Origin: an uncultured Pseudobdellovibrionaceae bacterium
GTDB lineage: Bacteria > Pseudomonadota > Alphaproteobacteria > Micavibrionales > Micavibrionaceae
Direction of reading: 5' to 3'
Assembly: GCA_964548445.1 (NCBI GenBank)
Contig: CAZJRT010000001.1
Coordinates: 1-33,892, forward strand
DNA length: 33,892 bases
Shown here: in pieces, positions 1,290-27,455 of the stretch
Numbering within the stretch: the first letter of the stretch is position 1
How the letters are laid out: each line of letters begins with the position of its first letter
Notes under the pieces: model-generated
What the model saw: the letters and a program-made list of their open reading frames with translations, nothing else
Databases searched by the model: none
What the model was told of the DNA's origin: nothing
Position numbers and translations under genes: made by a program

Positions 1290-2465
1290 ATGAAACATAA
1301 TCAGCATAATCTAAACTTCACCTTTGTCCATCCACCGATGGAATTCGACAAATATACCGATAAAGCGTTGCTCCAGTACTGCCTTGGCGCCGTGCTGTAC
1401 ATGCCTGGCACAAAAAACATCCTCGATAAAGTGCTGGCACGGCAGACACCGAGTCCTGCCTTGGTCATGTGCATGGAAGATGCTATCAAAGAGAATGCTG
1501 TCGAGGTTGCCGAGCATAATGTAAGGGACTGCCTTAATGTGCTATACAGATCAGTTCACGACGGGCTTATTGCCGTGAACGACCTACCCCTGATCTTTGT
1601 GAGAGTTCGATCAGTCCAGCAATTTCAGCAATTTGCGGCCAGTCTTAGCAAAGAGAGTGCCTCCATGCTGACGGGAATCAATTTTCCGAAATTCGATTCA
1701 ACCAATGGTACACACTATTTCGAGACGCTGAAAGAGATGAATACGGCGTTGGATGTTTCGCTGTATGGAATGCCGATTCTTGAGGGGAAAGCTATTGCCT
1801 TGCACGAGACGCGACAGGATGAGTTAGCCCGGCTAACTGGCATTATGGATATCTACCGCGAGTTGATCTTGAATATTCGTGTTGGAGCAACCGATTTCTC
1901 CTCGATCTTCGGGGTTCGCCGCGGGATCAATTATTCGATCTACGACATCGCAACCGTCCGTGACTGCCTTGCCGATATCTTGAATGTATTCTCACGGGAA
2001 GGATCAAGTCACGTAATATCAGCCCCGGTCTGGGAGTATTTCCTGGCTGACAATACGGAGAGTCTTGAGCATCTCCTTCATGAAGACATCCACAGGTCTC
2101 TCATGCAGCGAAGTTCGATTATCAACGATGCAATAGATGGACTGCTGCGAGAGGTGATCCTAGACAAAGCCAACGGCTTTGTTGGCAAGACCATCATACA
2201 CCCGTCGCATATGAAGTATGTCAATGCCATGCAAGCTGTTACCCGGGAAGAACACGAGGATGCCATGCAGATTCTCGGAACAGATGGAGGAGAAGTCAAA
2301 AGCGCAAAAGCCAACAAGATGAACGAAGTCAATCCGCATCGAAGCTGGGCGGGGAAAATTTGCAACCGCGCCAAGGTCTATGGTGTCATCGAGAATGAGT
2401 CCGATTATCTTAAACTTATACTCGGCGGCAACGGAATAGAAAACGCTTGTTGTCAAAAAGTCTGA
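1290..2465 (+). CDS. HpcH/HpaI aldolase / citrate-lyase beta (CitE)-like lyase family protein
   Basis: 391-aa ORF. MCMEDAI resembles the CitE DLEDAV motif, GINFPKFDS resembles PKxES, and GKTIIHPSH resembles IHPxQ. Assignment is from remembered motifs only. Confidence 0.7.
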   Translation: MKHNQHNLNFTFVHPPMEFDKYTDKALLQYCLGAVLYMPGTKNILDKVLARQTPSPALVMCMEDAIKENAVEVAEHNVRDCLNVLYRSVHDGLIAVNDLPLIFVRVRSVQQFQQFAASLSKESASMLTGINFPKFDSTNGTHYFETLKEMNTALDVSLYGMPILEGKAIALHETRQDELARLTGIMDIYRELILNIRVGATDFSSIFGVRRGINYSIYDIATVRDCLADILNVFSREGSSHVISAPVWEYFLADNTESLEHLLHEDIHRSLMQRSSIINDAIDGLLREVILDKANGFVGKTIIHPSHMKYVNAMQAVTREEHEDAMQILGTDGGEVKSAKANKMNEVNPHRSWAGKICNRAKVYGVIENESDYLKLILGGNGIENACCQKV

Positions 2466-2494
2466 CTTAGCATGAAAACGAACAGGAGCGTGAG

Positions 2495-3391
2495 GTGATG
2501 AAAGAAACAAGGGCATTTCTTCAAACGTTAAGCTTGCCAATAGGTGATGCATACGATTTACCGACTTCCGAAAAACGGTTTCCGGATGGGGCGCAATACC
2601 GGTTTGAAGTGCCTGGCATTCAAGGCCCCGGCACAATGAAGGCATTGCTGGAAGAATTGGATGTGCTTGGCATTTCGATTCATCGGGTTACGCAGACAAA
2701 AGGGATCATGTTGCTTTCAGATGATGATATAGAGCAGATGGTTGCGCTTGCAAAAAAAAATTGTGTTGAGCTTGTGCTGGCGATCGGCCCCCGTGCTACT
2801 TACGACACCAGCGCCTCGGTTCACACCCCCGAAGGGCAGCGCATGGGCTACCGGCTGCGGGGTCAGGAACAGATCATCAGGGCGATAGAGGATATAAAAC
2901 GGGCCGCGAAGCTAGGATGCCGCTCGTTTTTGATTTACGATGAGGGTTGTCTATGGGTATTGAATGAAGCTCGTAAGGTCGGTGAAATTCCAGAGAGTTG
3001 TAAATTCAAGGTTTCCGCCCACACCGGGCACGGAAACCCCTGTTCAGCGAAACTACTCGAAAGCATCGGCGCCAACTCGTTCAACCCCGTGCGTGACATT
3101 CAGGTTCAGATGCTCGCCGCGATCCGCCAGGCCGTTGCAATTCCGCTCGATATACATACAGAGAACCCGGCATCATCCGGCGGCTTTATTCGTCATTACG
3201 AGGTTCCTGAGATGATCCGCGTTGCCGCTCCCATATATCTAAAGACCGGCGGCTCGGTCGCCAAAACCCATAGCTGGGAATCCACGGCAGACGACGCTCG
3301 AAAACGCGCCAAACAGGTGATGCTCGTCAAGCGAGTGATTGATCGATATTTTCCGGAAGCCAAATACTCGGTAAAAGGTTCGACGAAATGA
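2495..3391 (+). CDS. Hypothetical enzyme, possibly TIM-barrel fold; family not recognised
   Basis: 298-aa ORF with an AGGAG RBS at 2484-2488 and a GTG 2495 or ATG 2498 start. It is tightly packed in the operon and shares an ATGA overlap with the following remnant. It contains an A9 tract at 2752-2760. Confidence 0.5.
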   Translation: MMKETRAFLQTLSLPIGDAYDLPTSEKRFPDGAQYRFEVPGIQGPGTMKALLEELDVLGISIHRVTQTKGIMLLSDDDIEQMVALAKKNCVELVLAIGPRATYDTSASVHTPEGQRMGYRLRGQEQIIRAIEDIKRAAKLGCRSFLIYDEGCLWVLNEARKVGEIPESCKFKVSAHTGHGNPCSAKLLESIGANSFNPVRDIQVQMLAAIRQAVAIPLDIHTENPASSGGFIRHYEVPEMIRVAAPIYLKTGGSVAKTHSWESTADDARKRAKQVMLVKRVIDRYFPEAKYSVKGSTK

Positions 3392-3534
3392 AAGTAGTCT
3401 TAGGAATCATGAATTTTGGCCCGCAAGTGGACGCGGGCAGTAGACGTATGATGGTTCACTGCTTGCTCCGTGCCAGACACCTGGAACTGGACACCGCCTA
3501 CGTATTTTCCGCTTATCCCGGCCGTAAAAGTTGA
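3388..3534 (+). pseudogene. N-terminal remnant (48 codons) of an aldo/keto reductase
   Basis: Own translation: MKVVLGIMNFGPQVDAGSRRMMVHCLLRARHLELDTAYVFSAYPGRKS*. It aligns with the N-terminus of the intact AKR at 4815 (MCKLILGTMTFGPQVSREDSRSMVQRFLDTGYTELDTAYVYNDG). Its ATG overlaps the upstream stop (ATGA at 3388-3391). Confidence 0.7.
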
Positions 3535-3566
3535 AAATTTAGACCCCCAGAAGAGGAGTGACTACC

Positions 3567-4685
3567 ATGATCGAGCGTATCAAAAATATAGAACCCTATG
3601 AAAAGGTAGAGAAGATAGGGAATACTCAGTACCCAACAATCCTATACGGAGCATCGCAAGCTGCCGCACTTAGTTGTGATTTCCTTGCAGCGCGTGGCAT
3701 AAATATGGATGCTGTGGTGGTTGACAGTGGTTTCTTGGCGGGCAACGAGACCCTTAACTTTCGAGGACGGCCAGTGCAGGCGATCGAAGATTTCATTGAT
3801 AGCCATAGCCGTCCCGTAAATCTGGTCATCGGTTTCTACTCGAAGAACATCCAAAGTTTGGTGTACAAGAAGCTGACTCGTTTTAAAAAGCTTGGGTTGA
3901 ATGTGGTTAATGTTGTTTTGCTTGACCACCACTTGCTCATGTATCCGGAAAGGGCTTTTACGTTCAATTATGTGCAAAGCCATTTGAAGGATTTTGAACA
4001 GACCTACAATCTTTTGGCGGATGATCGTTCAAGAGATGTTATGGTTGCATTTATAAACCAGCGGATCAGCGCTCAGATAGGTGAACTTGAACGTGTTCGC
4101 GATGACAATCAGTACTTTCTGCCTTCTGTTGTCAAGCTCACCGACAACGAGGTCTATGTCGACTGTGGTGCATACGACGGTGATACTGTGTTTGAATTCC
4201 TGGATGCGCTACAAAAGCAAACAGGACAGAGGGACTACGGAAGAATCTATGCACTGGAATGTAATCCCGCCACGTACCCCCTTCTGCTCGATAGAATTGG
4301 GCACCTCGCCAATGTCTCGTGTATGGACAAAGGGGCTTGGGACTGTGATGCCACCTGTCTCTCAATGGAGAATTTGGAGAGGAGTTCGTGCCTAACACAA
4401 AATGGGAAGTTCTCAGTACGGGTATCTCGGCTCGACGATATGTTGGATACCGAGGAGGGTTGCACATTCATCAAGATGGATATCGAAGGTGCGGAACTCC
4501 AGGCTTTGCGCGGAGCTGAAAGCACAATCAGGCAAGAGAGCCCAAAGCTGGCTATTTGTGTTTATCACAAAAATGATGACCTGTTGACCATTCCGCGCTA
4601 CCTGCACAGCATCAACCCGCGTTATAGTTTCTATTTGAGAGCCCATGAATCCAAGTCTGGCGAAGTGGTTTTATACGCTCTTTAG
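3567..4685 (+). CDS. FkbM-family SAM-dependent methyltransferase
   Basis: VYVDCGAYDGDTVFEF and FIKMDIEGAELQALRGA are hallmark FkbM (Methyltransf_21) motifs. ATG 3567 is preferred over GTG 3558 because GGAG lies at 3553-3556. Confidence 0.85.
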   Translation: MIERIKNIEPYEKVEKIGNTQYPTILYGASQAAALSCDFLAARGINMDAVVVDSGFLAGNETLNFRGRPVQAIEDFIDSHSRPVNLVIGFYSKNIQSLVYKKLTRFKKLGLNVVNVVLLDHHLLMYPERAFTFNYVQSHLKDFEQTYNLLADDRSRDVMVAFINQRISAQIGELERVRDDNQYFLPSVVKLTDNEVYVDCGAYDGDTVFEFLDALQKQTGQRDYGRIYALECNPATYPLLLDRIGHLANVSCMDKGAWDCDATCLSMENLERSSCLTQNGKFSVRVSRLDDMLDTEEGCTFIKMDIEGAELQALRGAESTIRQESPKLAICVYHKNDDLLTIPRYLHSINPRYSFYLRAHESKSGEVVLYAL

Positions 4686-4814
4686 TAGTATGTCGACTAG
4701 AAGCATAGCATCACGTCGCTTCTTGACCGTGCTGCGCGTGTCGTCTTTGTTCATGCACGTAGCGTAAGCATGGCTGCGGGGGATAGACCCCGTCAATTCG
4801 AAAGGGAGAAGTAT

Positions 4815-5765
4815 ATGTGTAAACTCATCCTTGGTACCATGACCTTTGGCCCCCAGGTTAGTCGCGAAGACAGCCGCAGCATGGTGCAACGCTTCCTGGA
4901 CACCGGATACACCGAACTTGACACGGCCTATGTGTATAACGACGGCGAGACCGAACGAATTCTCGGCGACATACTAAAGGACATCCCCGACGGGTCGTTC
5001 CGCCTGGCAACCAAGGCCCACCCCAGAATCACCGGCAGACTGGACGCTGACGCGGTCAACCTCCAGCTCACCAAATCTCTCGACAGGCTTGGGCAGGACT
5101 CGGTGGATATCTTTTATTTACATTTCCCCGACTCAACCACCCCGGTTGAAGAAGCACTGGACGGGTGCGTGCAACTTCACGCGCAAGGAAAATTCAAAGA
5201 ACTCGGTCTGAGCAATTTCCCGACCTGGATGGTTGTCGATATCTGGCACCTCTGCAAAGAACGCGGCTGGCCGAAGCCGACCGTGTACCAGGGACTCTAC
5301 AACGGTATAAGTCGCAATGTTGAGAGCGAACTGATCCCCGCACTTCGGAAATTGGGGATGCGTTTCTATGCTTTCAACCCTTTGGCCGGCGGATTGCTCT
5401 CCGGAAAACACACGGATTTTAATCGCAAACCAGAGGCTGGTCGGTTTACAGAACGGGCAAGCTATCGCAAACGATATTGGCGCAAATCCATGTTCGAAGC
5501 AGTCCAGCTTCTTGTCGATGTTTGCCGGGAAAACGATATACAACCAGTGGATGCCGCCCTCCGATGGCTCGCCCATCATTCGACGCTGGACGCATCGTAT
5601 GGCGACGGGATCATCATCGGCGCCTCGAAAATGCATCATCTCGACCAAAACTTAGCGGCGGCTGGAATAGGCGCTCTGCCCGTGTCAATTATCGAAGCGT
5701 TCGACGCAGGTTGGTCAAAGGCAAAATGTGAATGCCCCGAATATTTCCGTATTTACTCGAAATAA
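4815..5765 (+). CDS. Aldo/keto reductase (AKR7/aflatoxin-aldehyde-reductase-like)
   Basis: LGTMTFGPQ...ELDTAYVYNDGETERILG...LATK...DIFYLHFPD...LGLSNF are typical AKR motifs. ATG 4815 follows a GGGAG RBS. The in-frame extension upstream to 4770 is unlikely to be translated. Confidence 0.9.
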   Translation: MCKLILGTMTFGPQVSREDSRSMVQRFLDTGYTELDTAYVYNDGETERILGDILKDIPDGSFRLATKAHPRITGRLDADAVNLQLTKSLDRLGQDSVDIFYLHFPDSTTPVEEALDGCVQLHAQGKFKELGLSNFPTWMVVDIWHLCKERGWPKPTVYQGLYNGISRNVESELIPALRKLGMRFYAFNPLAGGLLSGKHTDFNRKPEAGRFTERASYRKRYWRKSMFEAVQLLVDVCRENDIQPVDAALRWLAHHSTLDASYGDGIIIGASKMHHLDQNLAAAGIGALPVSIIEAFDAGWSKAKCECPEYFRIYSK

Positions 5766-5768
5766 ATT
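5764..5768. repeat. Left copy of the putative 5-bp target-site duplication AAATT
   Basis: AAATT lies immediately outside the left IR, and an identical AAATT lies at 8164-8168 outside the right IR. It overlaps the TAA stop of the AKR gene. Confidence 0.6.
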
Positions 5769-5784
5769 CAGACTTCCTGATGTC
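5769..5784. repeat. IS left terminal inverted repeat
   Basis: CAGACTTCCTGATGTC is the exact reverse complement of 8148-8163. Confidence 0.85.
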
Positions 5785-5937
5785 AATCGGCGTCGCGAAC
5801 ATGGCTCAGGTTGCGTAAGATGCACACCCTCAGTGGATAGCGGCCCTTCTTAAGCGTTGAGATGGATGTGGCGCCTCGGACTATTTGATGATACGCTTTT
5901 CTCGGTAATGACGGATCATTCAAAGGGGGTTTGGGCT

Positions 5938-6423
5938 ATGCCGCAGACGTTACTTCCAATATTTGCCGAGGAATCAACGCCGATAAACGATGTCCTCTCA
6001 TTCGAGAAGCGGGACGGGACGGTCTGGTATTTTCATGCCTGCCTGCCTGTCTTCTCGCATGAGGAGACAGACTACAAAAGTTTCAATATGTTCACGAGTC
6101 AACTGGTGGATATGGGTCAATGCACGCAAATGGAGATAGTTCGCGCGTTCGGCGTGAGTCCCATTAGTGTAAAGCGGCACGTGAAAAGATTTCGAGCAGG
6201 AGGCCCTGGTGCATTTTTTGGTGGACGCAAAGCCAAGCGGCCCACGGTGTGGACCCCGGAAGTGTTGAACCGTGCACAGGAATTACTAAATCAAGGCCAC
6301 TCACGCAAAGCCGTGGCGGATCTGTTGGAGATAAAGCCGGACACCCTTTATCGCGCGATTCATTCTGGTCGCTTGGTGGAGCGCAAAAAAAAAGCGGACA
6401 GAGCAAAAGTGAACGAAGCGTAG
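5938..6423 (+). CDS. IS orfA: helix-turn-helix DNA-binding N-terminal part of the transposase
   Basis: ATG 5938 is preceded by AAGGGGG at 5923-5929. CTQMEIVRAFGVSPISVKRHVKRF and SRKAVADLLEIKPDTLYRAI look like two HTH units. It ends at TAG 6421-6423, just after the A9 tract. Confidence 0.7.
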   Translation: MPQTLLPIFAEESTPINDVLSFEKRDGTVWYFHACLPVFSHEETDYKSFNMFTSQLVDMGQCTQMEIVRAFGVSPISVKRHVKRFRAGGPGAFFGGRKAKRPTVWTPEVLNRAQELLNQGHSRKAVADLLEIKPDTLYRAIHSGRLVERKKKADRAKVNEA

Positions 6424-8138
6424 AAGATGCACAGGCCACGATGGGGGTGGGATGCACACGAGTCATAGAACGTGTCCTTACGGCTCTGGGGAAGTTCTCT
6501 GAAGCTCCATCTCGGTTCACTCCGGCGGTGGATGTAACCAATGGTGGCGTACTATGGGCATTGCCGGCGTTGTTGAATAATGGTCTGCTGCGACATACGA
6601 AGGATCATTTTTCTCTGCCCAACGGTTTCTACAGTGCTATACACATTTTCCTGCTGTTGGCATTCATGGCCCTCTCACGGATCAAGAACAACGAGCAACT
6701 CCGTTATTCGTCGGCGGGAGAGCTGGGCTTTCTCCTGGGATTGGATCGTATTCCGGAAGTGCGTACACTTCGCGAGAAAATCAAACACCTTGCCACAACA
6801 GGCCAGGTAAAGGAATGGGCGTCGGCTCTTTCAAAGGAATGGATGCAGGCCGATCCCGAAGCGGTGGGAACGCTGTATGTCGATGGGCATGTGCGGGTTT
6901 ATCACGGCAAAAACAGGCTTCCAAGGCGATATGTTTCACGACAGAGATTATGCTTGCGTGGCATGTCCGACTACTGGGTTAATGATCAACAGGGGCGGCC
7001 ATTTTTCGTGATCAGCACCCCCTTTACCTCCGGGTTGCTCGAAATGTTGCGTAGCCAGATCGTCCCTCGTTTGTTGAAAGACGTTCCCTCTCAACCCTCG
7101 CAGCAAGATATGAAAAAGAATCCGCTCCTTTCCCGGTTCACACTGGTTTTTGATCGGGAAGGATACAGTCCTGAGTTCTTCAAGGAAATGTGGGAAGAAC
7201 ATCGCATAGCCTGTATGACCTACAACAAATACCCGAAAGGCGATTGGCCAAAGCATGAATTTGAAGAACAAACAGGCATCGGCCCTAATAGAGAAGAAAT
7301 CAAAATGATGATCGCCGAGCGAGGAAGCTATATCGGAGCAAAGGGCAAGGGACTATGGGTTCGTGAAATTCGCAAGCTGACGGAAACAGGACATCAGACA
7401 GCCGTTGTCTGCACAGAATATAGAGCCGAAGTGCATTCTCTTGCCGTGCGAATGTTCTCCAGATGGTGTCAGGAGAACTTTTTCCGGTATATGCTGCAAC
7501 ACTTTGATTTGGATTCAGTTGCAGGTTACGGCAAAGAGCCGGTTGATGAGACCAAGCCGGTGGTTAACCCTGTGTACAGAAAAATAGAGTCTTTGGTGAA
7601 AAGCAAGGCGGGAAAGCTGGGTAGAAAGCTCCGTGAGTTTGCTGAAATAGCGTTAAGTCCGACTCCTCCACCGGAGGAAGTGCAGGAATACGAGGCACAA
7701 AAAGGCGCACTGATGGAGGAAATTGATCTACTGAAGGAGGACCTCGCCAGATTGAAAGAAACACGCAAAATAACAGGCAAACATATTCCCGTCTCTGAGC
7801 TTCCTGAAGCGGATCACTTCTCCCTATTGGCACCACGAAGAAAGGCGTTTGTTGACACGATCAAGATGATCGCTTACCGCGCCGAAACGGCGATGTCTGA
7901 TGTTTTGCGTGACTCAATGGCTCGCCCGGACGACGCCCGTTCTCTGCTACGTGATATCTACACTCAGGAAGCTGACATAATTCCCGATGAAGAGGAGGGA
8001 ACCTTGACTGTGCGATTGCATCACTTAACGAATCGAATGTCGGATCATGCGGTACAGATGCTGGCCCAGAATCTCAATGACACCGACACAATCTATCCCG
8101 GCACAAATTTGCGATTGCGCTACGAATTGGTGTCATAA
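6249..8138 (+). CDS. IS orfB: DDE-type transposase catalytic part, probably entered from orfA at 6385-6393
   Basis: The frame is open from 6249. Candidate catalytic residues lie in LYVDGHVRVYHG, LVFDREGYS and FSRWCQENFFRYM (R-x3-E signature). A charged coiled-coil-like tail follows. Confidence 0.75.
   Translation: MDPGSVEPCTGITKSRPLTQSRGGSVGDKAGHPLSRDSFWSLGGAQKKSGQSKSERSVEDAQATMGVGCTRVIERVLTALGKFSEAPSRFTPAVDVTNGGVLWALPALLNNGLLRHTKDHFSLPNGFYSAIHIFLLLAFMALSRIKNNEQLRYSSAGELGFLLGLDRIPEVRTLREKIKHLATTGQVKEWASALSKEWMQADPEAVGTLYVDGHVRVYHGKNRLPRRYVSRQRLCLRGMSDYWVNDQQGRPFFVISTPFTSGLLEMLRSQIVPRLLKDVPSQPSQQDMKKNPLLSRFTLVFDREGYSPEFFKEMWEEHRIACMTYNKYPKGDWPKHEFEEQTGIGPNREEIKMMIAERGSYIGAKGKGLWVREIRKLTETGHQTAVVCTEYRAEVHSLAVRMFSRWCQENFFRYMLQHFDLDSVAGYGKEPVDETKPVVNPVYRKIESLVKSKAGKLGRKLREFAEIALSPTPPPEEVQEYEAQKGALMEEIDLLKEDLARLKETRKITGKHIPVSELPEADHFSLLAPRRKAFVDTIKMIAYRAETAMSDVLRDSMARPDDARSLLRDIYTQEADIIPDEEEGTLTVRLHHLTNRMSDHAVQMLAQNLNDTDTIYPGTNLRLRYELVS
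6385..6393 (+). other. A9 slippery tract: candidate -1 frameshift or transcriptional-slippage site joining orfA to orfB
   Basis: The zero frame reads CGC AAA AAA AAA GCG (R K K K A). The -1 frame reads C AAA AAA AAA GCG GAC as ..KK SGQSKSERS.., which continues into the 629-aa orfB frame. Confidence 0.6.
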
Positions 8139-8147
8139 TAAATCCGA

Positions 8148-8163
8148 GACATCAGGAAGTCTG
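8148..8163. repeat. IS right terminal inverted repeat
   Basis: GACATCAGGAAGTCTG is the exact reverse complement of 5769-5784. Confidence 0.85.
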
Positions 8164-8168
8164 AAATT
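8164..8168. repeat. Right copy of the putative 5-bp target-site duplication AAATT
   Basis: Identical to 5764-5768. Confidence 0.6.
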
Positions 8169-8192
8169 ATACCGACCGAATATTCTACATAC

Positions 8193-9539
8193 ATGAACCT
8201 TACTGATAAATTTATAGACTCACTTGACGAGCTGCGCAATACTCAGCTTTCTCCGTCCGTCCAACATCAGGCCAAGCGCTGCCTGCTGGACTATTTGGGG
8301 GCCACTTTTGCCGGCGCGCGAATGATACAGGACAAAGGCGAGAAATTGCTGGAATTCATGGGGGGAATGTCGAACGAGTCCTCGATCATTGGCTTCAACC
8401 GCAAAACCAGCCCCGCACAGGCCGCATTCATAAACGGCCTGAGTTCGCACGTCGCGGAATTGGACGATGGAGTGATTTCGGGCATCGTGCATCCCGGTTC
8501 ACCCGTCCTCTCCGCACTTCTTCCCGTTGCCGAAAAAGAACAGATAGAGGGCGGCGATCTGCTTAACGGTATTGTTCTCGGGTACGAAGCAACCACGCGT
8601 CTTGCAGACGCTATTCAACCATCCCATAAGAAACGCGGATACCATGCCACCGGAACCTGTGGAACCATTGGCGCAGCCCTTGGAATTGCCTCAATGCTTC
8701 GTCTCAACCGCCTGCAAATGAAAGCGGTCTTTTCATCGGCTGTCGTATCGGCCCAAGGCAGTCTCAAGGTACTGGAAGACGATTCTGAATTGAAACCGTA
8801 CAACGTGGCACAAGCGGCAGTCGGAGGCGTGCTCGCAGCATCAATGGGACGCGCCGGCTTTTCCGGGCCGAACGACGTGCTGTCAGGCGGCACCGGTTTT
8901 ATTTCCATGGTAGCGGACGCGTTCGATGCGGATCAGTTGGTGCCGAAAGAGGGCGCTGCCTTTGCGGTGGAACGGGTTTATGTCAAGCCGTATGCGGCCT
9001 GCCGTTATTGCCATCCGGCCATTGATGCGGTGCTTAACATGAGGACGGATCATTCCTTGCGTCCGGAAATGATTACATCCGTAAACGTAACCACCTATGC
9101 ATTGGCCGTGGCGAAGCACGATCATACGATGACTAACGGCATTTCTTCCGCCAAGATGAGTATTCCATACAGCGTTGCCGTCGCGTTGGTTGCCGGCCAG
9201 GCAGGGATAGAAGAGTATTCCGATGAATACATTGCAGACCCAGCCGTCGCAACTTTAGCCCGAAAGGTATGCGTTCAACCCGACGATGAACTGACCAGGC
9301 TTTTCCCACGATATAGCCCTGCAATAGTCGAGGTGACGACTCTCGACGGAAACCGCTATACTGAACGGATTGATTCACCAAGGGGCGAGGCCGCGTTTCC
9401 ACTCTCAGACCGTGAAATTGAAGAGAAGTGTGCAACGCTGGCAATGTATGGACAAAAATCGGAAGAGGAAAGCCGACAACTTGGGCAGGCAGTTTGGAAT
9501 CTGGAAAAAGATTTGCCCAGCTTATTTCAGTTGCTGTAA
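8193..9539 (+). CDS. MmgE/PrpD-family protein (2-methylcitrate-dehydratase-like)
   Basis: 448 aa. KRCLLDYLGATFAG...SSHVAELDD...GYHATGTCGTIGAA...KPYAACRYCHPAIDA is the typical PrpD-family pattern. Confidence 0.9.
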   Translation: MNLTDKFIDSLDELRNTQLSPSVQHQAKRCLLDYLGATFAGARMIQDKGEKLLEFMGGMSNESSIIGFNRKTSPAQAAFINGLSSHVAELDDGVISGIVHPGSPVLSALLPVAEKEQIEGGDLLNGIVLGYEATTRLADAIQPSHKKRGYHATGTCGTIGAALGIASMLRLNRLQMKAVFSSAVVSAQGSLKVLEDDSELKPYNVAQAAVGGVLAASMGRAGFSGPNDVLSGGTGFISMVADAFDADQLVPKEGAAFAVERVYVKPYAACRYCHPAIDAVLNMRTDHSLRPEMITSVNVTTYALAVAKHDHTMTNGISSAKMSIPYSVAVALVAGQAGIEEYSDEYIADPAVATLARKVCVQPDDELTRLFPRYSPAIVEVTTLDGNRYTERIDSPRGEAAFPLSDREIEEKCATLAMYGQKSEEESRQLGQAVWNLEKDLPSLFQLL

Positions 9540-9559
9540 ACCGATTGGAATATTTTATC

Positions 9560-10696
9560 ATGATCGATCAGAAACAATTCCTTAAACAGCTACAGGATGC
9601 GGGCGTGGATTTCATTACGGGCGTCCCCGATACGTTGCTCAATGACTTCTGCCTGCATGCGGCGTCGACATGGCCGGATGACAGTCATGTCATAGCGGCA
9701 AACGAAGGAAACGCCGTAGCACTGGCCGCCGGGCATCACCTCGGCACGGGAGGCATCCCGCTGGTGTACATGCAGAATTCGGGTCTGGGCAATGCAACCA
9801 ACCCCCTGCTGTCTCTGACCAACCGGGAAGTGTACTCGATCCCTATGGTCTTACTGATCGGCTGGCGCGGCGATCCGGAGGTTGCGGACCATCCCCAGCA
9901 TCAGAAACAGGGCCGGCTCACGATCCCCCTGCTGGAAGCAATGGAAATCCCGTTCAAAATTTTACGGGACGATGAGGCGGAAGCTTTTCAAGCAGCGCAG
10001 TGGGCAGTGGATACGGCTAGGGAACAAAGCGTACCAACAGCACTGGTGGTCAAAAAAGGTGTGCTTGCAAAACTCAAAAAAGATGAGAAACTGGAGGATT
10101 CGCCATACCCCATGACCCGCGAACAGGCCATCGAATGCGTTCTAGATTGCATTCCGCAGGACGCCATCTGCGTCGCCACGACCGGGCGGGCGACACGGGA
10201 ACTTCACGCCCTACGTGGCCTGAAGGGTATGGGCCACGAAAATGACTTTCTGAATGTCGGTGCCATGGGACACGCCTCGTCCATTGCCCTCGGAATCGCC
10301 CTGGCAAAGCCAAATCGCCTCGTCGTCTGCCTGGACGGCGATGCAGCGGCAATCATGCACCTCGGCGCCCTCACAACCACTGGAAAACTCAACCCGTCAA
10401 ACTTATTACATGTAGTGCTGAATAACGGTGCCCACGAATCCGTGGGCGGTCAGTTATCTGCGGGCTTTAACGCGAATCTGACGGCCATTGCCGAAAATAC
10501 GGATTTCAACACTCCCGGTCGGGCAATTGAAACTAAGCAGGAATTGGCCAAAGCAGTCAACGCTTTAGTCGCTTTAGAGAGGCCGGCGTTTGTTGAAGTG
10601 CGTATTCGGAAAGGAATTCGCCCCGACCTTCCGCCTCTGAAGATTATCCCAAAAGGGCTGAAGGGGCCGTTGATGAAAGATATTTGCGCACGTTAG
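9560..10696 (+). CDS. ThDP-dependent phosphonopyruvate decarboxylase-like enzyme (Ppd/AepY; ComDE family)
   Basis: ATG 9560 gives MIDQKQFLKQLQDAGVDFITGVPDTLLNDFC, a typical Ppd N-terminus. ThDP motif: LDGDAAAIMHLGAL...LNNGAHESVGGQ. The 378-aa length fits Ppd. The ORF-track extension back to 9428 overlaps the PrpD gene. Confidence 0.8.
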   Translation: MIDQKQFLKQLQDAGVDFITGVPDTLLNDFCLHAASTWPDDSHVIAANEGNAVALAAGHHLGTGGIPLVYMQNSGLGNATNPLLSLTNREVYSIPMVLLIGWRGDPEVADHPQHQKQGRLTIPLLEAMEIPFKILRDDEAEAFQAAQWAVDTAREQSVPTALVVKKGVLAKLKKDEKLEDSPYPMTREQAIECVLDCIPQDAICVATTGRATRELHALRGLKGMGHENDFLNVGAMGHASSIALGIALAKPNRLVVCLDGDAAAIMHLGALTTTGKLNPSNLLHVVLNNGAHESVGGQLSAGFNANLTAIAENTDFNTPGRAIETKQELAKAVNALVALERPAFVEVRIRKGIRPDLPPLKIIPKGLKGPLMKDICAR

Positions 10697-10753
10697 TCGG
10701 GCGAATCTTTCAACAATTTATTTATAAAATGTATTATCGAGGAGTTTGTGGCT

Positions 10754-12043
10754 GTGAAAAAATTATTAATGCTAAGTGGTGTAACTCAAATGTGTCAGAT
10801 TGTGGAGGATGCTCAGAAAAAAGGTATTTATGTTATCGTCACTGACTATCTGAAAGATTCGCCCGCGAAGCAGATTGCCGATGAAAGCCTTTCTCTCAGT
10901 ATTACGGACGTTGATGGCATTGTAGATTATTGCCGCGAAAACAATATAGATGGTGTGATGAACTATTGCATCGACCCTGGCCAGAAGCCATATCAGCAGA
11001 TATGTGAGAGGCTAAAACTCCCTTGTGTGGGAACTAAGGAACAGTTTGATGTCATGACGAACAAAGATGTATTTAAAGAGTGTTGTCAGCGCTACGGAGT
11101 GGGTGTTATTCAAAGCTATGATCTTGATGAGGATCTTAAAGCTTGTGATGTTGGAAGGCTAGAATTCCCTGTGCTTGTGAAGCCTGTTGACAGCAGGGCA
11201 TCAAAAGGGATTACGGTTTGTCGAAGCAAGGATGATTTGCCAGAGGCCATTTTAAATGCATTAAAGCATTCGAGCAGAAAGAAATTTTTGGTTGAAAAGT
11301 ATATACAGAGCGATGAAGTTTGCGCCAAGTACGTGGTGTGTGACGGCGAGCCGTATTTAACATCTATGGCCGATGTTTATGACTGCCTGACATCGAGCGG
11401 AGAGAGAGCGTATATTGGGAGTCAGACTTATCCGTCTAAACATTATTCTTTATTTCTAAAGGAGACGGATGGGAAGTTGCGCGAGATGATCCGTGGCCTT
11501 GGTATAAAAAATGGCGTTCTTTCATTTACAGGCTTTCTTGATAGCGAGATGTTTCGTTTTTTTGATCCTTCTTTTCGGATGGGTGGTGCGCAAGATTGGC
11601 TTCTTGTCGCCGCAATCAGTGGAGTAGATATATCCGCGTTGTTAACAAATTTTGCACTTACGGGAAAAATGGGGAAACAGCGAAAAATTGAAAATATCGA
11701 CAAGAAATTTTCAGAGAAATCATCGGCTCTTCTTTATTTTTTAGCTAAAGAGGGGCGAATTGGACAAATAAAAGGTATTGATATCGCGTCTAAGCATCCT
11801 TCCGTCATTGGATACCATGCCCCTCATCGAGAGGGTGACATTATTGTGCAAAAAGGAACTGTTGACCATGTCTTTGTGAGATTCCTCTTAGTTTGTGATG
11901 ATAATGAGCAGTTGAAGAAAAGCATTATAGAAATCCAAAGTTTGGTTTCGATAATTAATGAAAACGGCGAAAATATGGGGCTTCCTTTGTTTGATCCAGG
12001 AAATCTTGTGAAGAGTTGTTGTTTGAATGTAATTGACAGATGA
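10754..12043 (+). CDS. ATP-grasp domain ligase
   Basis: PVLVKPVDSRASKGITVCRS and LVEKYIQSDE are ATP-grasp motifs, preceded by an N-terminal pre-ATP-grasp Rossmann-like region. GTG 10754 lies 9 nt after GGAG. GTG 10748 is also possible. Confidence 0.8.
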   Translation: MKKLLMLSGVTQMCQIVEDAQKKGIYVIVTDYLKDSPAKQIADESLSLSITDVDGIVDYCRENNIDGVMNYCIDPGQKPYQQICERLKLPCVGTKEQFDVMTNKDVFKECCQRYGVGVIQSYDLDEDLKACDVGRLEFPVLVKPVDSRASKGITVCRSKDDLPEAILNALKHSSRKKFLVEKYIQSDEVCAKYVVCDGEPYLTSMADVYDCLTSSGERAYIGSQTYPSKHYSLFLKETDGKLREMIRGLGIKNGVLSFTGFLDSEMFRFFDPSFRMGGAQDWLLVAAISGVDISALLTNFALTGKMGKQRKIENIDKKFSEKSSALLYFLAKEGRIGQIKGIDIASKHPSVIGYHAPHREGDIIVQKGTVDHVFVRFLLVCDDNEQLKKSIIEIQSLVSIINENGENMGLPLFDPGNLVKSCCLNVIDR

Positions 12044-12053
12044 GGATTATTAA

Positions 12054-12554
12054 TTGAAATCCACATGCACTCCAATTTCCGAAGATGTCGCAGGACAGTT
12101 TGTTCAGGGAGAGATAATACTGCTTTCGGGCTGGATTTTTACCGGGCGGGATGCGGTGCTGCCGAAGCTGGTTCGTCTGATTGAATCCGGCGGGCTGGCC
12201 GATGCCGGCATTGATCTTCAAGGCGCGGTGATTTTCCATACCGCCGTCAGTCCGGCCGGTGTCGGCCCGACCTCCAGCAACAAGCATGACATTGAAAGTA
12301 CGATTCCCGCTCTTTCCAAAGCCGGGGTAAAAATCCATCTGGGGAAAGGCAAACTCAGCGCTCAAACGATTGCGGCACTGAAAGAACACAATTCCATTTT
12401 TGCGGTGATACCTCCCGTGACGGCATTACTTGAAAGCAAAATCATTGAACGCAAAGTCGCCGCTTTTCCTGAAGAGGGCATGGAAGCGCTGCACCTGATC
12501 AAGGTCAAAGACTTCCCCTGCATCCTCGCCGCCGCACATGGAGAAAGCCTTTAA
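12054..12554 (+). CDS. Fe-S hydro-lyase beta-type subunit (TtdB / class-I fumarate hydratase C-terminal domain)
   Basis: TTG start lies 7 nt after GAGGA. It aligns along its length with remembered E. coli TtdB. Shared strings: GAVIFHTA, VGPTSS, HLGKGKL and EALHLIKVKDFPCILAAAHGESL. Confidence 0.85.
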   Translation: MKSTCTPISEDVAGQFVQGEIILLSGWIFTGRDAVLPKLVRLIESGGLADAGIDLQGAVIFHTAVSPAGVGPTSSNKHDIESTIPALSKAGVKIHLGKGKLSAQTIAALKEHNSIFAVIPPVTALLESKIIERKVAAFPEEGMEALHLIKVKDFPCILAAAHGESL

Positions 12555-12667
12555 ATTTAGCCACAAAAAACACAAAAAGGGCTAAAAATGAACCCAACAT
12601 CAATTATTTCTCAAAGTGGGCGGCACAGAGTTGGTGAGTTCGGAAGTTGAGGAGTAAGGGCGCAAGA

Positions 12668-14023
12668 ATGACGGAGCAAGAGTTACAGTTTATGTTGTCT
12701 GAAGGCGAGGGTCTCTTTGTTGAGTTCAAGGAGAGGCCGGACAAATCTCTTGCCCGGGAGATGTCAGCATTTGCCAATGCATCTGGAGGCAAGATTTTTA
12801 TCGGTGTATCGGATGATTCTCAACCGATTGGTATTCAGATCGACAATCGCCTTAAATCACAGATTCACAATACGGCGCGAAACTGCGACCCTCCCATTGC
12901 AGTCAAGTTGGCCACCGCAGACCAGGTTTTGGTTGTTGAAGTCCCGGAGAGCCCGAACAAACCGCACGCCTGTTCCGACGGTTTTTTCATGCGGATCGGA
13001 GCGAACTCTCAGAAGCTGAGCCGTGATGAGATTTTTTCCATGGGGATTTGCTCAGGACGGCTGCGCTTTGATGAGCAAATCTGCGGAGCGTTCGACTGTT
13101 CGTCAGATCTTGATGAGGAGAAGGTTTCTGCATATCTCCGTGCGGCGGGATTGAACGCAACGCTGCCTTTGGAGGAAATACTGGCTAATCTGGAGCTGTC
13201 CCATTCGGCAAGCGGAAAGCCGGTGATGACGAACGCCGGAGTTCTCCTGTTCGCAAAAAATCCCGCATATTTTCTTAAAAGCTCACCGGTTGTCTGTGCC
13301 GTTTATCAAGGGGAAGATAAGGTGCAGATTCTGGACCGTAAGATTTTTAATGATGGGTTGATCGGGAATATCGATGCCGCTGTGATGTATCTCAAGCGTC
13401 ATGTGAATGTTCGCTTTGAGATTCGTTCGCTACGGCGGGAGGAAATTCCCCAATATCCGGAGGCTGCTTTTCGCGAAGCCATCGTCAACGCGGTGATGCA
13501 CCGGGATTACTTTGATGCATCGGGCGATATCATGGTGGAGGTTTTTCAGAACCGGTTGACTGTTTCCAATCCGGGAGGACTCGTCCCGTGGCTCCCGCCG
13601 GAGGATTTCGGGAAATACAGCCGAACCCGAAACCGGCTGATCGCCTCTCTGCTCATGCGCACGCAGCAGGCAGAAAAAATGGGAACCGGGATTCGCCGGA
13701 TTCAGCAGGCATTGAAAACGGCGGGCAATCCCCCCGCAGAATTCGATTATGACAACTATAATTTTTCCGTTACACTGTTTTCCACTCTGCGTCCAGAGCA
13801 GGGTGGCACATTAAATGGCACATTAAATGGCACATTAAATGGCACATTAAATGAACGAATCAGTACGCTGATCAAAAAACAGCCGGGCATTCAGCGCAAA
13901 GAGCTTATTGAGCAGACCGGGGCCTCGGTCAGGACGGTTGCCAGAGTTATTTCAGAGTTACTTTCCGGTGGCGAAATCGAACACCGTGGCAGCAAAAAAA
14001 CAGGAGGCTATTGGCCTTTATGA
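12668..14023 (+). CDS. AlbA_2/Schlafen-type (divergent AAA_4) plus HATPase_c_4-like plus C-terminal winged-helix protein (RecG-like putative regulator)
   Basis: EGEGLFVEFKER...EMSAFANASGGKIFIGVSDD is the AlbA_2 signature. REAIVNAVMHRDY...NPGGL is the ATPase-like module. The C-terminal KELIEQTGASVRTVARVISELL looks like a wHTH. ATG 12668 is preferred. Confidence 0.8.
   Translation: MTEQELQFMLSEGEGLFVEFKERPDKSLAREMSAFANASGGKIFIGVSDDSQPIGIQIDNRLKSQIHNTARNCDPPIAVKLATADQVLVVEVPESPNKPHACSDGFFMRIGANSQKLSRDEIFSMGICSGRLRFDEQICGAFDCSSDLDEEKVSAYLRAAGLNATLPLEEILANLELSHSASGKPVMTNAGVLLFAKNPAYFLKSSPVVCAVYQGEDKVQILDRKIFNDGLIGNIDAAVMYLKRHVNVRFEIRSLRREEIPQYPEAAFREAIVNAVMHRDYFDASGDIMVEVFQNRLTVSNPGGLVPWLPPEDFGKYSRTRNRLIASLLMRTQQAEKMGTGIRRIQQALKTAGNPPAEFDYDNYNFSVTLFSTLRPEQGGTLNGTLNGTLNGTLNERISTLIKKQPGIQRKELIEQTGASVRTVARVISELLSGGEIEHRGSKKTGGYWPL
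13805..13852 (+). repeat. Perfect 12-bp tandem repeat x4 (GGCACATTAAAT), encoding (GTLN)4
   Basis: Four identical head-to-tail units read directly. They are in frame, in the linker before the C-terminal wHTH of the AlbA_2 protein. Confidence 0.95.
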
Positions 14024-14898
14024 CCACCCAGTCCCCAAAACCCAGAAACCCCATGAAAAACATTGAATCCAAAGTAAAAGCTGCGGTAATCCAAGCTTCC
14101 ACGGTCTTTTCCGACGATAAGAAAGCTGTGCTGCGCGAAGCAATCGAAATCGAAACCAACCCTAACGCCCGATGGGTGCTGGAACAGACGCTTGAAAACG
14201 CCGAGATCGCAGAAAGAACCGGACACGCCACCTGCGACGACACCGGCATCCCGCACACCCTGCTCGAAGTCGGTGGCAACCATTCAGTCAGCGCCGAACT
14301 GCTCGCGGCGATCGAACAAGGTATCTGCGAGGGCATGCGCGCCTTGCCCTGTCGTCCAATGGCGGTCAAGGGAGACGACGTCCAGCGACTGGAGCAATCC
14401 GCCGGACTCGACGACGATCCGGGCGCTCTGGCGCTTGCACCGATTCGGATCAAGCGTGTAGACGACGACGTTCTTCGCCTGCATATCCTGATGCAGGGCG
14501 GCGGTCCTGAGATTCGCGGCAAGACATATCGGGTCTTCCACCAGCACAAGCTTTCGGTCATCATCGACGAAATCGTAACCTGGGCAATCGAAGCCGCCGG
14601 ACTGCTGGGTTGCACCCCATGCGCCCCCGCCATTGGAATCGGCCGCACGCATTTTGAAGCTGCCTCGCTCATGCTCGATGCCATGATCCACGGAAGGTTC
14701 GACATCCAGAACGATATCGAACGCGAGATAACCCGGCGCATCAACGAAACCAACATCGGCCCGCTCGGACTGGGCGGCGACACCACCGCAATGGCCACCT
14801 TTCTCAAGGTCGGCCCGCAACGCGCCAGCGGCGTACGCATCGCCTGCCTGCGCCTTTGTTGCAGCGTGGAACCCCGTGTGGCCAGCGTCGAGCTTTAG
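14020..14898 (+). CDS. Fe-S hydro-lyase alpha-type subunit (TtdA / class-I fumarate hydratase N-terminal domain)
   Basis: ATCDDTGIPH corresponds to CQDTG, LMQGGGPE to the GGG motif, and GCTPCAPAIGIGRT to CPPxxVGVGI. The C-terminal RIACLRLCC supplies further Cys ligand candidates. ATG 14020 overlaps the upstream TGA (ATGA), and AGGAGG lies at 14002-14007. Confidence 0.85.
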   Translation: MTTQSPKPRNPMKNIESKVKAAVIQASTVFSDDKKAVLREAIEIETNPNARWVLEQTLENAEIAERTGHATCDDTGIPHTLLEVGGNHSVSAELLAAIEQGICEGMRALPCRPMAVKGDDVQRLEQSAGLDDDPGALALAPIRIKRVDDDVLRLHILMQGGGPEIRGKTYRVFHQHKLSVIIDEIVTWAIEAAGLLGCTPCAPAIGIGRTHFEAASLMLDAMIHGRFDIQNDIEREITRRINETNIGPLGLGGDTTAMATFLKVGPQRASGVRIACLRLCCSVEPRVASVEL

Positions 14899-14943
14899 TA
14901 ACATATTTTGGGCCAAATATATATTTTCCGGGAACATCACATT

Positions 14944-19574: not shown

Positions 19575-19575
19575 A

Positions 19576-20700: not shown

Positions 20701-20727
20701 GAAATGAATGCAAAGTAACAGATTATA

Positions 20728-21696: not shown

Positions 21697-21816
21697 TGCG
21701 CGCCATCGGATTTGTATGTGCTGATTTGTAGTTAATTAAGACTGGGTACATTTCTTCAATAATCTCGTGATAATGTTAAATCAAAGACGAGCAGTAAGCG
21801 GGAAAGAACATATAAG

Positions 21817-26126: not shown

Positions 26127-26127
26127 A

Positions 26128-27345: not shown

Positions 27346-27455
27346 AACGCTTATAGCCTAGGTTCCTTCGGTCCGTCCATGAAAGTCTCAAACAGATTCT
27401 CCTGGAATTCCCCTGATGATGCATACGTTCTTTTTGTTCTGGCTGCAAGGCTACT

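Follow-up and report, generated by a model that had tools for sequence, protein, structure and literature searches.

The stretch of DNA analysed here, 33,892 nt from the start of contig CAZJRT010000001.1 of an uncultured Pseudobdellovibrionaceae bacterium (hereafter the window), carries at 1290–14898 a set of genes, here called the cassette, which a first-pass annotation had described as a tight, orphan group of small-acid tailoring enzymes within a glycan locus. All large open reading frames (ORFs) in the window's ORF list from 166 to about 32 kb lie on the forward strand. Assignment of the ORFs by Pfam and NCBIfam profile searches agrees with the families and genes that had been named, strand and place included, with a weak match for the WecF-like glycosyltransferase (Table 1). 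The earlier inventory was accurate for the genes it named but incomplete, as it did not mention U297, the insertion sequence (IS) element, the AlbA_2 gene or a remnant of the aldo-keto reductase (AKR) gene; in the comparison across loci, U297 is the best-conserved member of the cassette. Downstream of the GT56 gene follow genes for a UDP-GlcNAc 2-epimerase, glycosyltransferases, Wzy, PGA_cap, a RimK-like ligase, an AMP-binding enzyme, Bac_transf and a GNAT protein, and by its gene content the window is a surface-glycan locus.

Table 1. Cassette genes, inserted features and flanking genes of the window, with positions in nt and supporting profile matches
Feature	Position	Strand	Support
DegT/DnrJ/EryC1-type sugar aminotransferase (DegT)	166–1275	+	PF01041, 4e-113
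CitE/malyl-CoA-lyase-like C–C bond lyase (CCL)	1290–2465	+	PF15617 C-C_Bond_Lyase, 5e-108
U297, 298-aa ORF, U32-like TIM barrel	2495–3391	+	no Pfam/NCBIfam match
AKR 5' remnant, 48 codons	3388–3534	+	50% identity over 40 aa to the N-terminus of the resident AKR, E 1e-11
FkbM-family methyltransferase	3558–4685	+	PF05050, TIGR01444
AKR	ORF opens 4770, likely start ATG 4815, end 5765	+	PF00248, 5e-56
IS element	5767–8165		inverted repeats; HTH and Transposase_29 ORFs
MmgE/PrpD-family protein (PrpD-like)	8193–9539	+	PF03972, 3e-54; PF19305, 6e-39
Ppd, phosphonopyruvate-decarboxylase-clade thiamine pyrophosphate (TPP) enzyme	9560–10696	+	TIGR03297, 417.1 bits versus cut-off 312.5
ATP-grasp ligase	10748–12043	+	several ATP-grasp Pfam families, PylC-like_N, LAL_C2
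Fumerase_C (TtdB-like), Fe-S hydro-lyase beta subunit	12054–12554	+	PF05683, 6e-20; TIGR00723
AlbA_2/HATPase_c_4/wHTH gene	12647–14023	+	PF04326, PF13749
Fumerase (TtdA-like), alpha subunit	TTG 14011 or ATG 14020 to 14898	+	PF05681, 7e-51
GT56 (WecF-like) glycosyltransferase	14908–16197	+	PF07429, 1.4e-4, 21.5 bits, under gathering score 25

Related loci were collected by scanning for U297 in one genome per species, which gave at least 330 confirmed loci; the best 80, 74–84% identical, were retained. Comparisons refer to these 80 best U297 loci, to 85 loci in total or to the 43 judged complete, with components counted within 8 kb of U297. ORFs were called in every locus and compared to the window proteins, and unlabelled neighbours were clustered and then searched against Pfam and NCBIfam. 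The gene combination had been taken to be an unfamiliar one, but the neighbourhood comparison finds the set in 43 of 43 complete related loci, in at least nine phyla. The best 80 loci belong to Desulfobacterota, Bacillota, Bacteroidota, Balneolota, Chloroflexota, Verrucomicrobiota/Lentisphaerota, Cloacimonadota, Fibrobacterota, Spirochaetota and Pseudomonadota (Halomonadaceae), and among the carriers are gut-dwelling Firmicutes and Bacteroidota as well as sulfate-reducing and marine bacteria. Cultured carriers are Mediterraneibacter massiliensis Marseille-P2086, M. glycyrrhizinilyticus An427, Tissierella simiarum MSJ-40, Eubacterium segne BX4, Billgrantia campisalis A4, Vreelandella nigrificans, Mongoliibacter ruber DSM 27929, Desulfobacter latus AcRS2 and a Pelagicoccus sp. 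The cassette is widespread, horizontally mobile and modular, and the set recurs far beyond chance.

The modular organization is apparent from the component counts in the complete loci. The CCL gene is present in all 43 and the PrpD-like gene in 41, being absent from L039 and L049. TtdA and TtdB occur together in 32 loci, while a Lyase_1 gene is found in 8, accompanied in 7 by a PF04199 'Cyclase' gene; TtdAB and Lyase_1 never share a locus. Such a hydration module is absent from L058 and L060; L025, which seems a further exception, has its Lyase_1 and Cyclase genes farther downstream. Because the PrpD-like gene or the hydration module is dispensable in some loci, with terminal modules kept in L039, L049, L058 and L060, only CCL and U297 appear to be strictly required before the 2-oxoacid on which these terminal modules act, and the proposal of PrpD as an obligatory step does not hold for the two loci that lack it, one of them the six-gene operon of L049. 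The terminal modules themselves are of three kinds: Ppd (17 loci), a D-2-hydroxyacid dehydrogenase of the 2-Hacid_dh family (15 loci) and Ldh_2 (9 loci), and no two of them coincide in any complete locus. An AKR gene accompanies Ppd in 16 of the 17 cases and is never present without it. That a 2-oxoacid is decarboxylated and reduced, as had been suggested for the window, is in line with this pairing and with the replacement of both enzymes elsewhere by 2-Hacid_dh or Ldh_2. Since the three mutually exclusive terminal modules all consume a 2-oxoacid, such a compound is placed at the centre of the pathway.

The link to an amino sugar, also suggested earlier, is strengthened by the comparison. A DegT gene is present in 33 and an ATP-grasp gene of any type in 37 of the complete loci; both are co-directional with the core and often abut it, DegT frequently lying directly 5' of the lyase gene. 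At least one recognised glycan gene was found in 57 of the 80 loci, the remainder being mostly short contigs. Flippases, RmlA, glycosyltransferases and Bac_transf are common neighbours, and genes for Vat/CatB-like hexapeptide acetyltransferases lie beside some cassettes. As a separate observation, L098 (12208–14830) and the P0002 locus, both of the 2-Hacid_dh type, contain genes for a hexapeptide transferase, a ketoacyl synthase (KAS III), an acyl carrier protein (ACP) and a short-chain dehydrogenase/reductase (SDR) between ATP-grasp and TtdB. This KAS III/ACP insert in some 2-Hacid_dh cassettes suggests that the glycan bears a further acyl group, delivered by the ACP.

Within the window, the cassette is less compact than had been stated, as the 2.4-kb IS element and the AlbA_2 gene lie inside its span. 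ATGA overlaps, reported for several junctions, exist at only two: the U297 stop overlaps the AKR remnant at 3388–3391, and the AlbA_2 stop overlaps the TtdA ATG at 14020–14023. At the other junctions inspected, some 10 to 170 nt separate the genes. The closest syntenic order, DegT–CCL–U297–AKR–PrpD–Ppd–ATP-grasp–TtdB–TtdA, was found in two Desulfobacterota, a Desulfatiglandales metagenome-assembled genome (MAG; L006) and Desulfobacter latus (L007), and is identical to the window order once three insertions are subtracted. On this comparison, the window copy acquired the FkbM block, the IS element and the AlbA_2 gene secondarily, by later insertion.

The IS element starts directly 3' of the AKR stop codon, extends over about 2.4 kb and splits the AKR–PrpD junction, whose two genes adjoin in L006. 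Its imperfect inverted repeats, with the core TTCAGACTTCCTGATGTC, lie at 5750–5784 and 8148–8182, or at 5767–5784 and 8148–8165 within the limits of the element; a target-site duplication was not identified for the element. Its HTH ORF (5857–6423) and Transposase_29 ORF (6249–8138; PF21804, 3e-196) overlap in different frames, which may reflect a programmed frameshift. The AlbA_2 gene, which is Schlafen-like, separates the genes of TtdB and TtdA. These are adjacent in the comparison loci, where no homologue of the AlbA_2 gene was found. The P0002 locus has two small ORFs at the TtdB–TtdA junction, which may be a hot spot for insertions. The AKR remnant adjoins the 3' end of U297, and in both L006 and L007 U297 and AKR are direct neighbours; the remnant is read as a recombination scar at the ancestral U297–AKR junction. 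Given an identity of only 50% between the remnant and the resident AKR, the block of FkbM and AKR looks imported by recombination and not locally duplicated. FkbM had been counted as part of the pathway, but none of the 85 comparison loci has a homologue and the gene adjoins the scar, which places it outside the conserved pathway; it might O-methylate the product or a sugar.

Three independent insertions in one operon, together with the AKR remnant, could also mean that the window copy is decaying, so that the IS, AlbA_2 and FkbM events have uncoupled or silenced the cassette and it makes no contribution to the present glycan. The IS element between AKR and PrpD could be polar on the downstream genes. 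We regard such decay as unlikely, given that all cassette ORFs are full length compared with their orthologues and retain their catalytic residues, that the insertions are all intergenic and co-directional, and that the ATGA overlap between AlbA_2 and TtdA suggests continued co-translation.

U297, the signature gene of the cassette, has 6160 homologues, the best 120 of which are 78–85% identical. The window protein does not match PF01136 (Peptidase_U32) even at E ≤ 1, and has no other match in Pfam or NCBIfam. The same PF01136 profile is matched by 27 of 33 members of the family, mostly those that are 26–51% identical (best E 7.7e-08), and distant relatives carry the RefSeq label 'U32 family peptidase'. 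An AlphaFold2 (AF2) model built from a diverse alignment is a TIM barrel (pLDDT 93.9, pTM 0.91); a first model based only on homologues of about 80% identity had a pLDDT of 61, and its fold matches were discarded. Foldseek returned only generic TIM-barrel matches for the U297 model, with TM-scores up to about 0.5, among them class II aldolases, methylisocitrate lyase, transcarboxylase 5S and the U32 protein 5d88. Kinship with phosphoenolpyruvate (PEP) mutase or the DRE-TIM enzymes was rejected, because these fold and profile matches are generic (TM ≤ ~0.5, profile E ≥ 0.02). C142, C169 and C183 are invariant among close orthologues, and no cysteine is conserved family-wide. The U32 proteins UbiU/UbiV, TrhP and RlhA have Fe-S-binding cysteines and prephenate-dependent hydroxylase activity.

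The genomic surroundings of distant U297 relatives, which lie in unrelated operons, some with lactam-type hydrolases (hydantoinase A/B, creatininase), offer an indication of function. A relative in Streptomyces has an overlapping 2-Hacid_dh gene, two aldehyde dehydrogenases and hydantoinase A/B nearby; one on a metagenome contig neighbours an SDR, an AKR, amidohydrolases and a creatininase; and one on an Enterobacter plasmid lies with a phosphotransferase, an NAD(P) oxidoreductase, an aminotransferase, heme-oxygenase-like iron enzymes and a nucleotidyltransferase, an operon that may be a natural-product cluster. Distant relatives, 33–41% identical, are located at 5227–15589 of L087/L088, 10001–15091 of L089 and 7898–17966 of L092. 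As distant relatives adjoin enzymes consuming carbonyl compounds or 2-oxoacids, we infer that the product of U297-type enzymes is a 2-oxoacid or a carbonyl compound, and U297 is possibly a new kind of aldolase or lyase. U297 was not found in any complete genome of E. coli, and no O-antigen of known structure is thereby tied to the cassette.

The second constant component, CCL, has more than 5700 homologues, the best 120 at least 60% identical, and an exact-sequence look-up of the window protein returned no record. The profile of its family (A3) matches only malyl-CoA lyase (5ugr), CLYBL (5vxc) and CitE (3qll), at E-values of 0.004–0.04, and in these weak profile alignments CCL carries the CitE-type signature motifs xEDA, expected near beta-2, and GFxGKxxIHP, expected near the C-terminus. 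From this set of matches, CCL would be of the CoA-ester lyase type and not an HpcH aldolase. It scores far under the citE equivalog (TIGR01588, 22 versus 443 bits), and CitD- or CitF-like partners were found neither in the window nor among the identified neighbours in related loci.

The PrpD-like protein is closer to IRG1, iminodisuccinate (IDS) epimerase and cis-aconitate decarboxylase than to PrpD itself: its nearest solved relatives are Bacillus subtilis IRG1 (7bra, 2.5e-36) and IDS epimerase (2hp0, with 2hp3 also matched), and against the best PrpD equivalog it reaches 49 bits, the cut-off being 950. No PrpC or PrpB partner was found in the examined loci. Its family relationships suggest an accessory dehydratase, decarboxylase or epimerase acting on a polycarboxylate. 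TtdA and TtdB have the Fumerase and Fumerase_C domains and three cysteines of a class I Fe-S hydro-lyase, with the two genes split in the window. C75, C201 and C284 of the TtdA-like protein are invariant in 51 orthologues, which fits a [4Fe-4S] cluster, and the TtdB-like protein is 48–77% identical in 53 loci. None of the respective equivalogs is reached (TtdA NF006084, 60 versus 365 bits; fumarase NF004885, 124 versus 276; TtdB NF006082, 52 versus 264). The alternative Lyase_1 protein best matches 3-carboxy-cis,cis-muconate cycloisomerase, adenylosuccinate lyase and XcbD (421 bits, cut-off 600). On one reading, both TtdAB and Lyase_1 with PF04199 would achieve the net hydration of an unsaturated polycarboxylate, either directly or by lactonisation followed by hydrolysis.

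These families had led to the proposal of a chain elongation of the FR-900098/phosphinothricin type, in which CCL condenses, PrpD and TtdAB together replace aconitase, and Ppd acts on an externally supplied phosphono-2-oxoacid. The families are as stated there, and a pairing of a PrpD-like dehydratase with a separate hydratase is possible. The methylcitrate cycle (PrpC, PrpD, aconitase, PrpB) works by such a pairing, and with that cycle, as with the FR-900098/phosphinothricin pathways, the cassette shares a C–C bond enzyme, a PrpD member and a separate hydratase, a combination that could isomerise a hydroxy-polycarboxylate; the exchange of TtdAB for the carboxymuconate-cycloisomerase-like Lyase_1 (with PF04199), if read as net hydration, would also agree with it. 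However, neither the window nor the recurrent neighbours in the 43 complete loci contain PEP mutase (PepM), an HMGL-type synthase, aconitase or an isocitrate-dehydrogenase-type enzyme, and the families identified in the examined loci include no PepM motif and no beta-decarboxylating dehydrogenase. The Ppd-type loci lack an oxidoreductase for the required oxidative decarboxylation, and the terminal modules persist in L039 and L049 without PrpD and in L058 and L060 without a hydration module. The cassette further differs from both systems in lacking a citrate-synthase-type synthase and an ICL/PEPM-family lyase, and from the methylcitrate cycle in having a dispensable PrpD-like protein nearer to IRG1 and IDS epimerase. 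The elongation scheme is accordingly extremely unlikely in our estimate.

Among the remaining enzymes, the AKR retains its catalytic tetrad (D51, Y56, K82, H118) in 30 orthologues. The ATP-grasp protein is the least conserved component, orthologues being 19–58% identical to the window copy; its scores exceed the gathering thresholds of Dala_Dala_lig_C (33.9/24 bits), PylC-like_N (32.4/27) and ATP-grasp_4 (28/27), and its nearest solved relative is 4dim (9e-15). ATPgrasp_Ter gave weak matches on neighbouring genes. A division of the ATP-grasp proteins into two subtypes tracking the terminal module was rejected, as the identity distributions overlap. The best NCBIfam match of Ldh_2 is L-sulfolactate dehydrogenase (306 bits, under the cut-off), and the cassette 2-Hacid_dh matches VanH at 126 bits.

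Ppd is the enzyme with the most specific assignment. It passes the equivalog for phosphonopyruvate decarboxylase, whereas ComDE models give only 92 and 82 bits; it has both TPP domains (PF02776 and PF02775), and its GDG...NN motif (D259, G260, D261, N288, N289) is conserved in 31 orthologues. In a neighbour-joining (NJ) tree, the 31 cassette sequences are monophyletic (100 of 100 bootstraps) and sister to the PepM-linked AepY of the Bacteroidota Fulvitalea and Segatella, so that the clade nests inside the AepY radiation. Cassette Ppd is 43–46% identical to Bacteroidota AepY, which are 35–36% identical to AepY of Burkholderiales and Streptomyces. Five genuine AepY share about 52 invariant positions; the cassette clade keeps 48 of them without variation, and only four changes are class-specific: L to K174, S to A206, D to E293 and L to F344. 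Such retention implies a substrate that would be either phosphonopyruvate or a close anionic mimic. Genuine aepY genes abut aepX, the PEP mutase gene, in four of five plasmid records, and in Segatella copri and Fulvitalea axinellae aepY is followed by a phosphonoacetaldehyde reductase gene, with a LicD or glycerophosphotransferase-family gene nearby. In the cassette, the first-pass annotation had noted no PEP mutase, which our search confirms: the motif EDKx5NS occurs neither in a six-frame translation of the window nor among the ORFs of the 85 loci.

A decarboxylase of this ancestry without a PEP mutase could be due to a PepM-independent phosphonate or sulfonate route, in which U297 and/or CCL would make phosphonopyruvate or sulfopyruvate and the product would decorate the glycan. 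Ppd and AKR would then yield 2-hydroxyethylphosphonate (HEP) or isethionate, and the dehydrogenases phosphonolactate or sulfolactate. The equivalog score, the position of the Ppd clade inside PepM-linked AepY with 43% identity to the Bacteroidota enzymes, and the 48 kept against 4 changed invariants are all consistent with this, as is the absence of the PepM motif from the window and the 85 loci. The known branch points of phosphonopyruvate are Ppd, a VlpB-type 2-Hacid_dh and a predicted malate dehydrogenase with fumarase and ATP-grasp (PMC8942020). The three terminal modules mirror them, and the parallel is striking, though all the phosphonate branches listed there depend on PepM. The L-sulfolactate dehydrogenase match of Ldh_2 and the 421 bits of Lyase_1 to XcbD of coenzyme M biosynthesis (cut-off 600) can also be cited. 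On the other side, the PepM family comprises the sole enzymes known to form this C–P bond, and a PepM could be encoded elsewhere in the carrier genomes. The PrpD, TtdAB, CitE and Lyase_1 families act on carboxylates; LicD, a PntC-type nucleotidyltransferase and a phosphotransferase were not seen in the window or among recurrent neighbours, unlike in the HEP loci of Segatella and Fulvitalea; and a decarboxylated phosphonate or sulfonate leaves no carboxylate for the ATP-grasp ligase. Taken together, we consider this route distinctly unlikely, and its more specific form, in which U297 alone or with CCL feeds phosphonopyruvate to Ppd and HEP or phosphonolactate decorates glycans in at least nine phyla, more unlikely still.

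We favour a carboxylate that mimics phosphonopyruvate as the Ppd substrate, namely oxaloacetate or a 4-hydroxy-2-oxoglutarate-type adduct whose tetrahedral C4 would imitate the phosphonate. This preference rests on the co-occurring CitE, PrpD, TtdAB and Lyase_1 families, which act on carboxylates, on the requirement of ATP-grasp and DegT for a carboxylate left after decarboxylation, and on the fact that no nucleotidyl- or phosphotransferase for phosphonate transfer was seen. Pyruvate was considered as the 2-oxoacid, since the terminal modules mirror pyruvate decarboxylase with alcohol dehydrogenase and D-/L-lactate dehydrogenase. It was rejected because it would leave the core enzymes without a purpose and because ethanol offers no means of attachment to a glycan.

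In our preferred reading, to which we assign a probability of roughly 50%, the cassette makes a small hydroxy-acid of an unusual kind, which is then linked to an amino sugar in a surface polysaccharide. We infer the order of the steps, the identity of the acid and the acceptor from the observed families, their co-occurrence, the exclusivity of the modules and the intact motifs. CCL and U297, usually with TtdAB and the PrpD-like protein, would generate an anionic 2-oxoacid resembling phosphonopyruvate, conceivably oxaloacetate or an aldol adduct of the 4-hydroxy-2-oxoglutarate type. In the window, the AepY-derived TPP decarboxylase would remove C1 and the AKR would reduce the resulting aldehyde to a primary alcohol, while in other genomes 2-Hacid_dh (D-type) or Ldh_2 would reduce the same 2-oxoacid to a D- or L-2-hydroxyacid. 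DegT would install the amine on an NDP-6-deoxyhexose (NDP, nucleoside diphosphate), ATP-grasp would join the remaining carboxylate to this amine as an amide, and GT56 would then transfer the acylated sugar.

Several observations weigh against this reading. The enzymes of the core would be superfluous if the 2-oxoacid were plain oxaloacetate or 2-oxoglutarate, and the 48 of about 52 AepY-invariant residues that are kept argue for phosphonopyruvate or a very close mimic. The window copy might be poorly expressed as a result of the IS and AlbA_2 insertions. An ATP-grasp gene is missing from the 8-kb surroundings of U297 in six of the 43 complete loci, all but one of them of the Ppd type; one of the six, L061, has an unlabelled ATP-grasp gene about 5 kb upstream. 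In a Ruminococcus MAG (L049), the operon LysR–AKR–Ppd–U297–CCL–TtdB–TtdA (6665–13420) lies beside Crp and glycogen genes, and no gene recognisable as glycan-related was seen up to 10 kb away. L014 (5127–16370) has the order LysR–DctM–AKR–Ppd–U297–CCL–TtdBA, DctM being a permease of the TRAP type. These two arrangements imply that the six-gene core is a self-contained small-molecule unit. An imported dicarboxylate may be its starting compound, or in some genomes its role may lie outside glycan synthesis.

Extended to the whole family, the same arrangements would make the core (AKR–Ppd–U297–CCL–TtdBA) primarily catabolic or fermentative for an imported organic acid, the glycan setting being secondary and the terminal modules being analogous to pyruvate decarboxylase with alcohol dehydrogenase, or to D-/L-lactate dehydrogenase. 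Besides the L049 operon with its LysR gene and the LysR and DctM genes directly upstream in L014, distant U297 relatives in catabolic-looking operons (ABC transporters, hydantoinase, creatininase, aldehyde dehydrogenases) are in line with such a role. However, L014 itself runs on into PrpD–PrpD–DegT–Bac_transf, with two PrpD paralogues; the frequencies of glycan genes, DegT and ATP-grasp given above, and the co-directional, often abutting position of the latter two, point to glycan synthesis; and glycan serotype cassettes typically spread this widely in the company of flippase, polymerase and glycosyltransferase genes. A primarily catabolic role is thus very unlikely.

Attachment of a hydroxy-acid to an amino sugar would fit structures already described: N-linked D-/L-malyl, 2-O-acetyl-malyl and 2-hydroxyglutar-5-yl groups occur on amino sugars of marine bacteria, some with a glycosylated hydroxyl (PMC3210612). 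The alternative D- and L-dehydrogenases and the Vat/CatB-like acetyltransferases would agree with malyl-type products. Glycans with N-malyl or 2-hydroxyglutaryl groups are carried by Vibrio vulnificus YJ016 and CECT 5198, Pseudoalteromonas rubra ATCC 29570, Shewanella algae BrY, Flavobacterium psychrophilum and Tenacibaculum maritimum. The cassette could not be linked to any strain of known glycan structure; the paper on the Tenacibaculum maritimum O-antigen cluster mentions none of the cassette families and provides no link between the cassette and its 2-hydroxyglutaryl glycan, and none of the papers searched describes this gene set.

Parts of the proposed pathway resemble known systems. In the aepX–aepY–reductase modules of Segatella copri DSM 18205 and Fulvitalea axinellae, as in the cassette, an AepY-clade decarboxylase is followed by an aldehyde reductase within a glycan locus. 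The cassette differs from them in having no PEP mutase and no LicD/glycerophosphotransferase-type transferase, in using an AKR instead of an Fe-ADH, in its own Ppd clade (100/100), and in the addition of five to six enzymes (U297, CitE-like, PrpD, TtdAB, ATP-grasp). In the VanH–VanA system a D-2-hydroxyacid dehydrogenase feeds an ATP-grasp ligase, and capsule tailoring in Campylobacter jejuni uses ATP-grasp amidoligases. Reduction of a 2-oxoacid to a hydroxy-acid followed by ATP-grasp ligation is common to VanH–VanA and the cassette, but the acceptor of the latter would presumably be an NDP-amino sugar and not D-Ala, its 2-oxoacid would come from a dedicated pathway, and the window version would decarboxylate and reduce instead of reducing directly. 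ComC (Ldh_2) and ComDE of coenzyme M biosynthesis belong to the same two families as the cassette Ldh_2 and Ppd and act on 3-substituted pyruvates; they are sequential and co-occurring, whereas their cassette counterparts are mutually exclusive, and the cassette decarboxylase groups with AepY. The pairing of a PrpD-subgroup protein with Lyase_1, present in 8 of the 43 complete cassettes, is also that of IDS epimerase and its C–N lyase, a catabolic system for a synthetic chelator that has no CitE-like enzyme, U297 or terminal module. Finally, lyases of the PF15617 family and ATP-grasp ligases also occur together in a biosynthetic module associated with the Ter operon, itself uncharacterised; in contrast to that module, the cassette has no TerD, phosphoribosyltransferase or HAD protein, and it sits in a glycan locus.

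Amide-linked hydroxy-acids such as D-/L-malyl and 2-hydroxyglutaryl groups, and decorations like them, shape the antigenicity of bacterial surface glycans, and to our knowledge and in the papers searched no biosynthetic genes for these decorations have been reported. The cassette is a concrete candidate pathway for them, with protein families numbering in the thousands. Its interchangeable modules predict products that share one carbon skeleton, differ by the presence or absence of a single carboxyl, and have a D- or L-configured hydroxyl. The comparison also provides a metabolic context for an unusually conserved U32-like TIM-barrel family that has no Pfam model. In dozens of genomes, the annotation 'phosphonopyruvate decarboxylase' stands without an adjacent PEP mutase. 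Either this label is systematically wrong, which would matter for the mining of genomes for phosphonates, or it hints at a second phosphonate route. What appears to be new here, as far as gene content and homology indicate, is a widespread glycan-tailoring pathway with an uncharacterised signature enzyme and product, and a Ppd clade uncoupled from PEP mutase.

The GT56 gene at the 3' end of the cassette scores 70.9 bits against NF002756 (9e-20), the cut-off being 457, and GT56 genes also lie near the cassette in the P0002 locus, L025 and L029. It is best described as a neighbour outside the conserved membership of the cassette, and probably transfers an acylated 4-amino-6-deoxyhexose. Near 17 kb the G+C content falls from about 50% to about 38%; it stays at 36–44% over about 17000–31000, a part covering the glycosyltransferase, Wzy and ligase genes, and rises past 31 kb. 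This shift indicates a mosaic glycan locus, assembled from two or more sources. A second amide-forming or tailoring set, with PGA_cap, a methyltransferase, a RimK-like ATP-grasp, an AMP-binding enzyme and GNAT, is distributed over 19576–22827 and 27497–32124. It includes two ORFs without a family, at 29939–31030 and 31027–32124, the latter with a weak PylC-like N-terminal match, and homologues of the former lie near the cassette in L029 and L036. The Wzy-like ORF (22827–24050) and the GT1 ORF (23890–25086) overlap by about 160 nt, and the GT1 start, TTG at 23890, was probably called too early.

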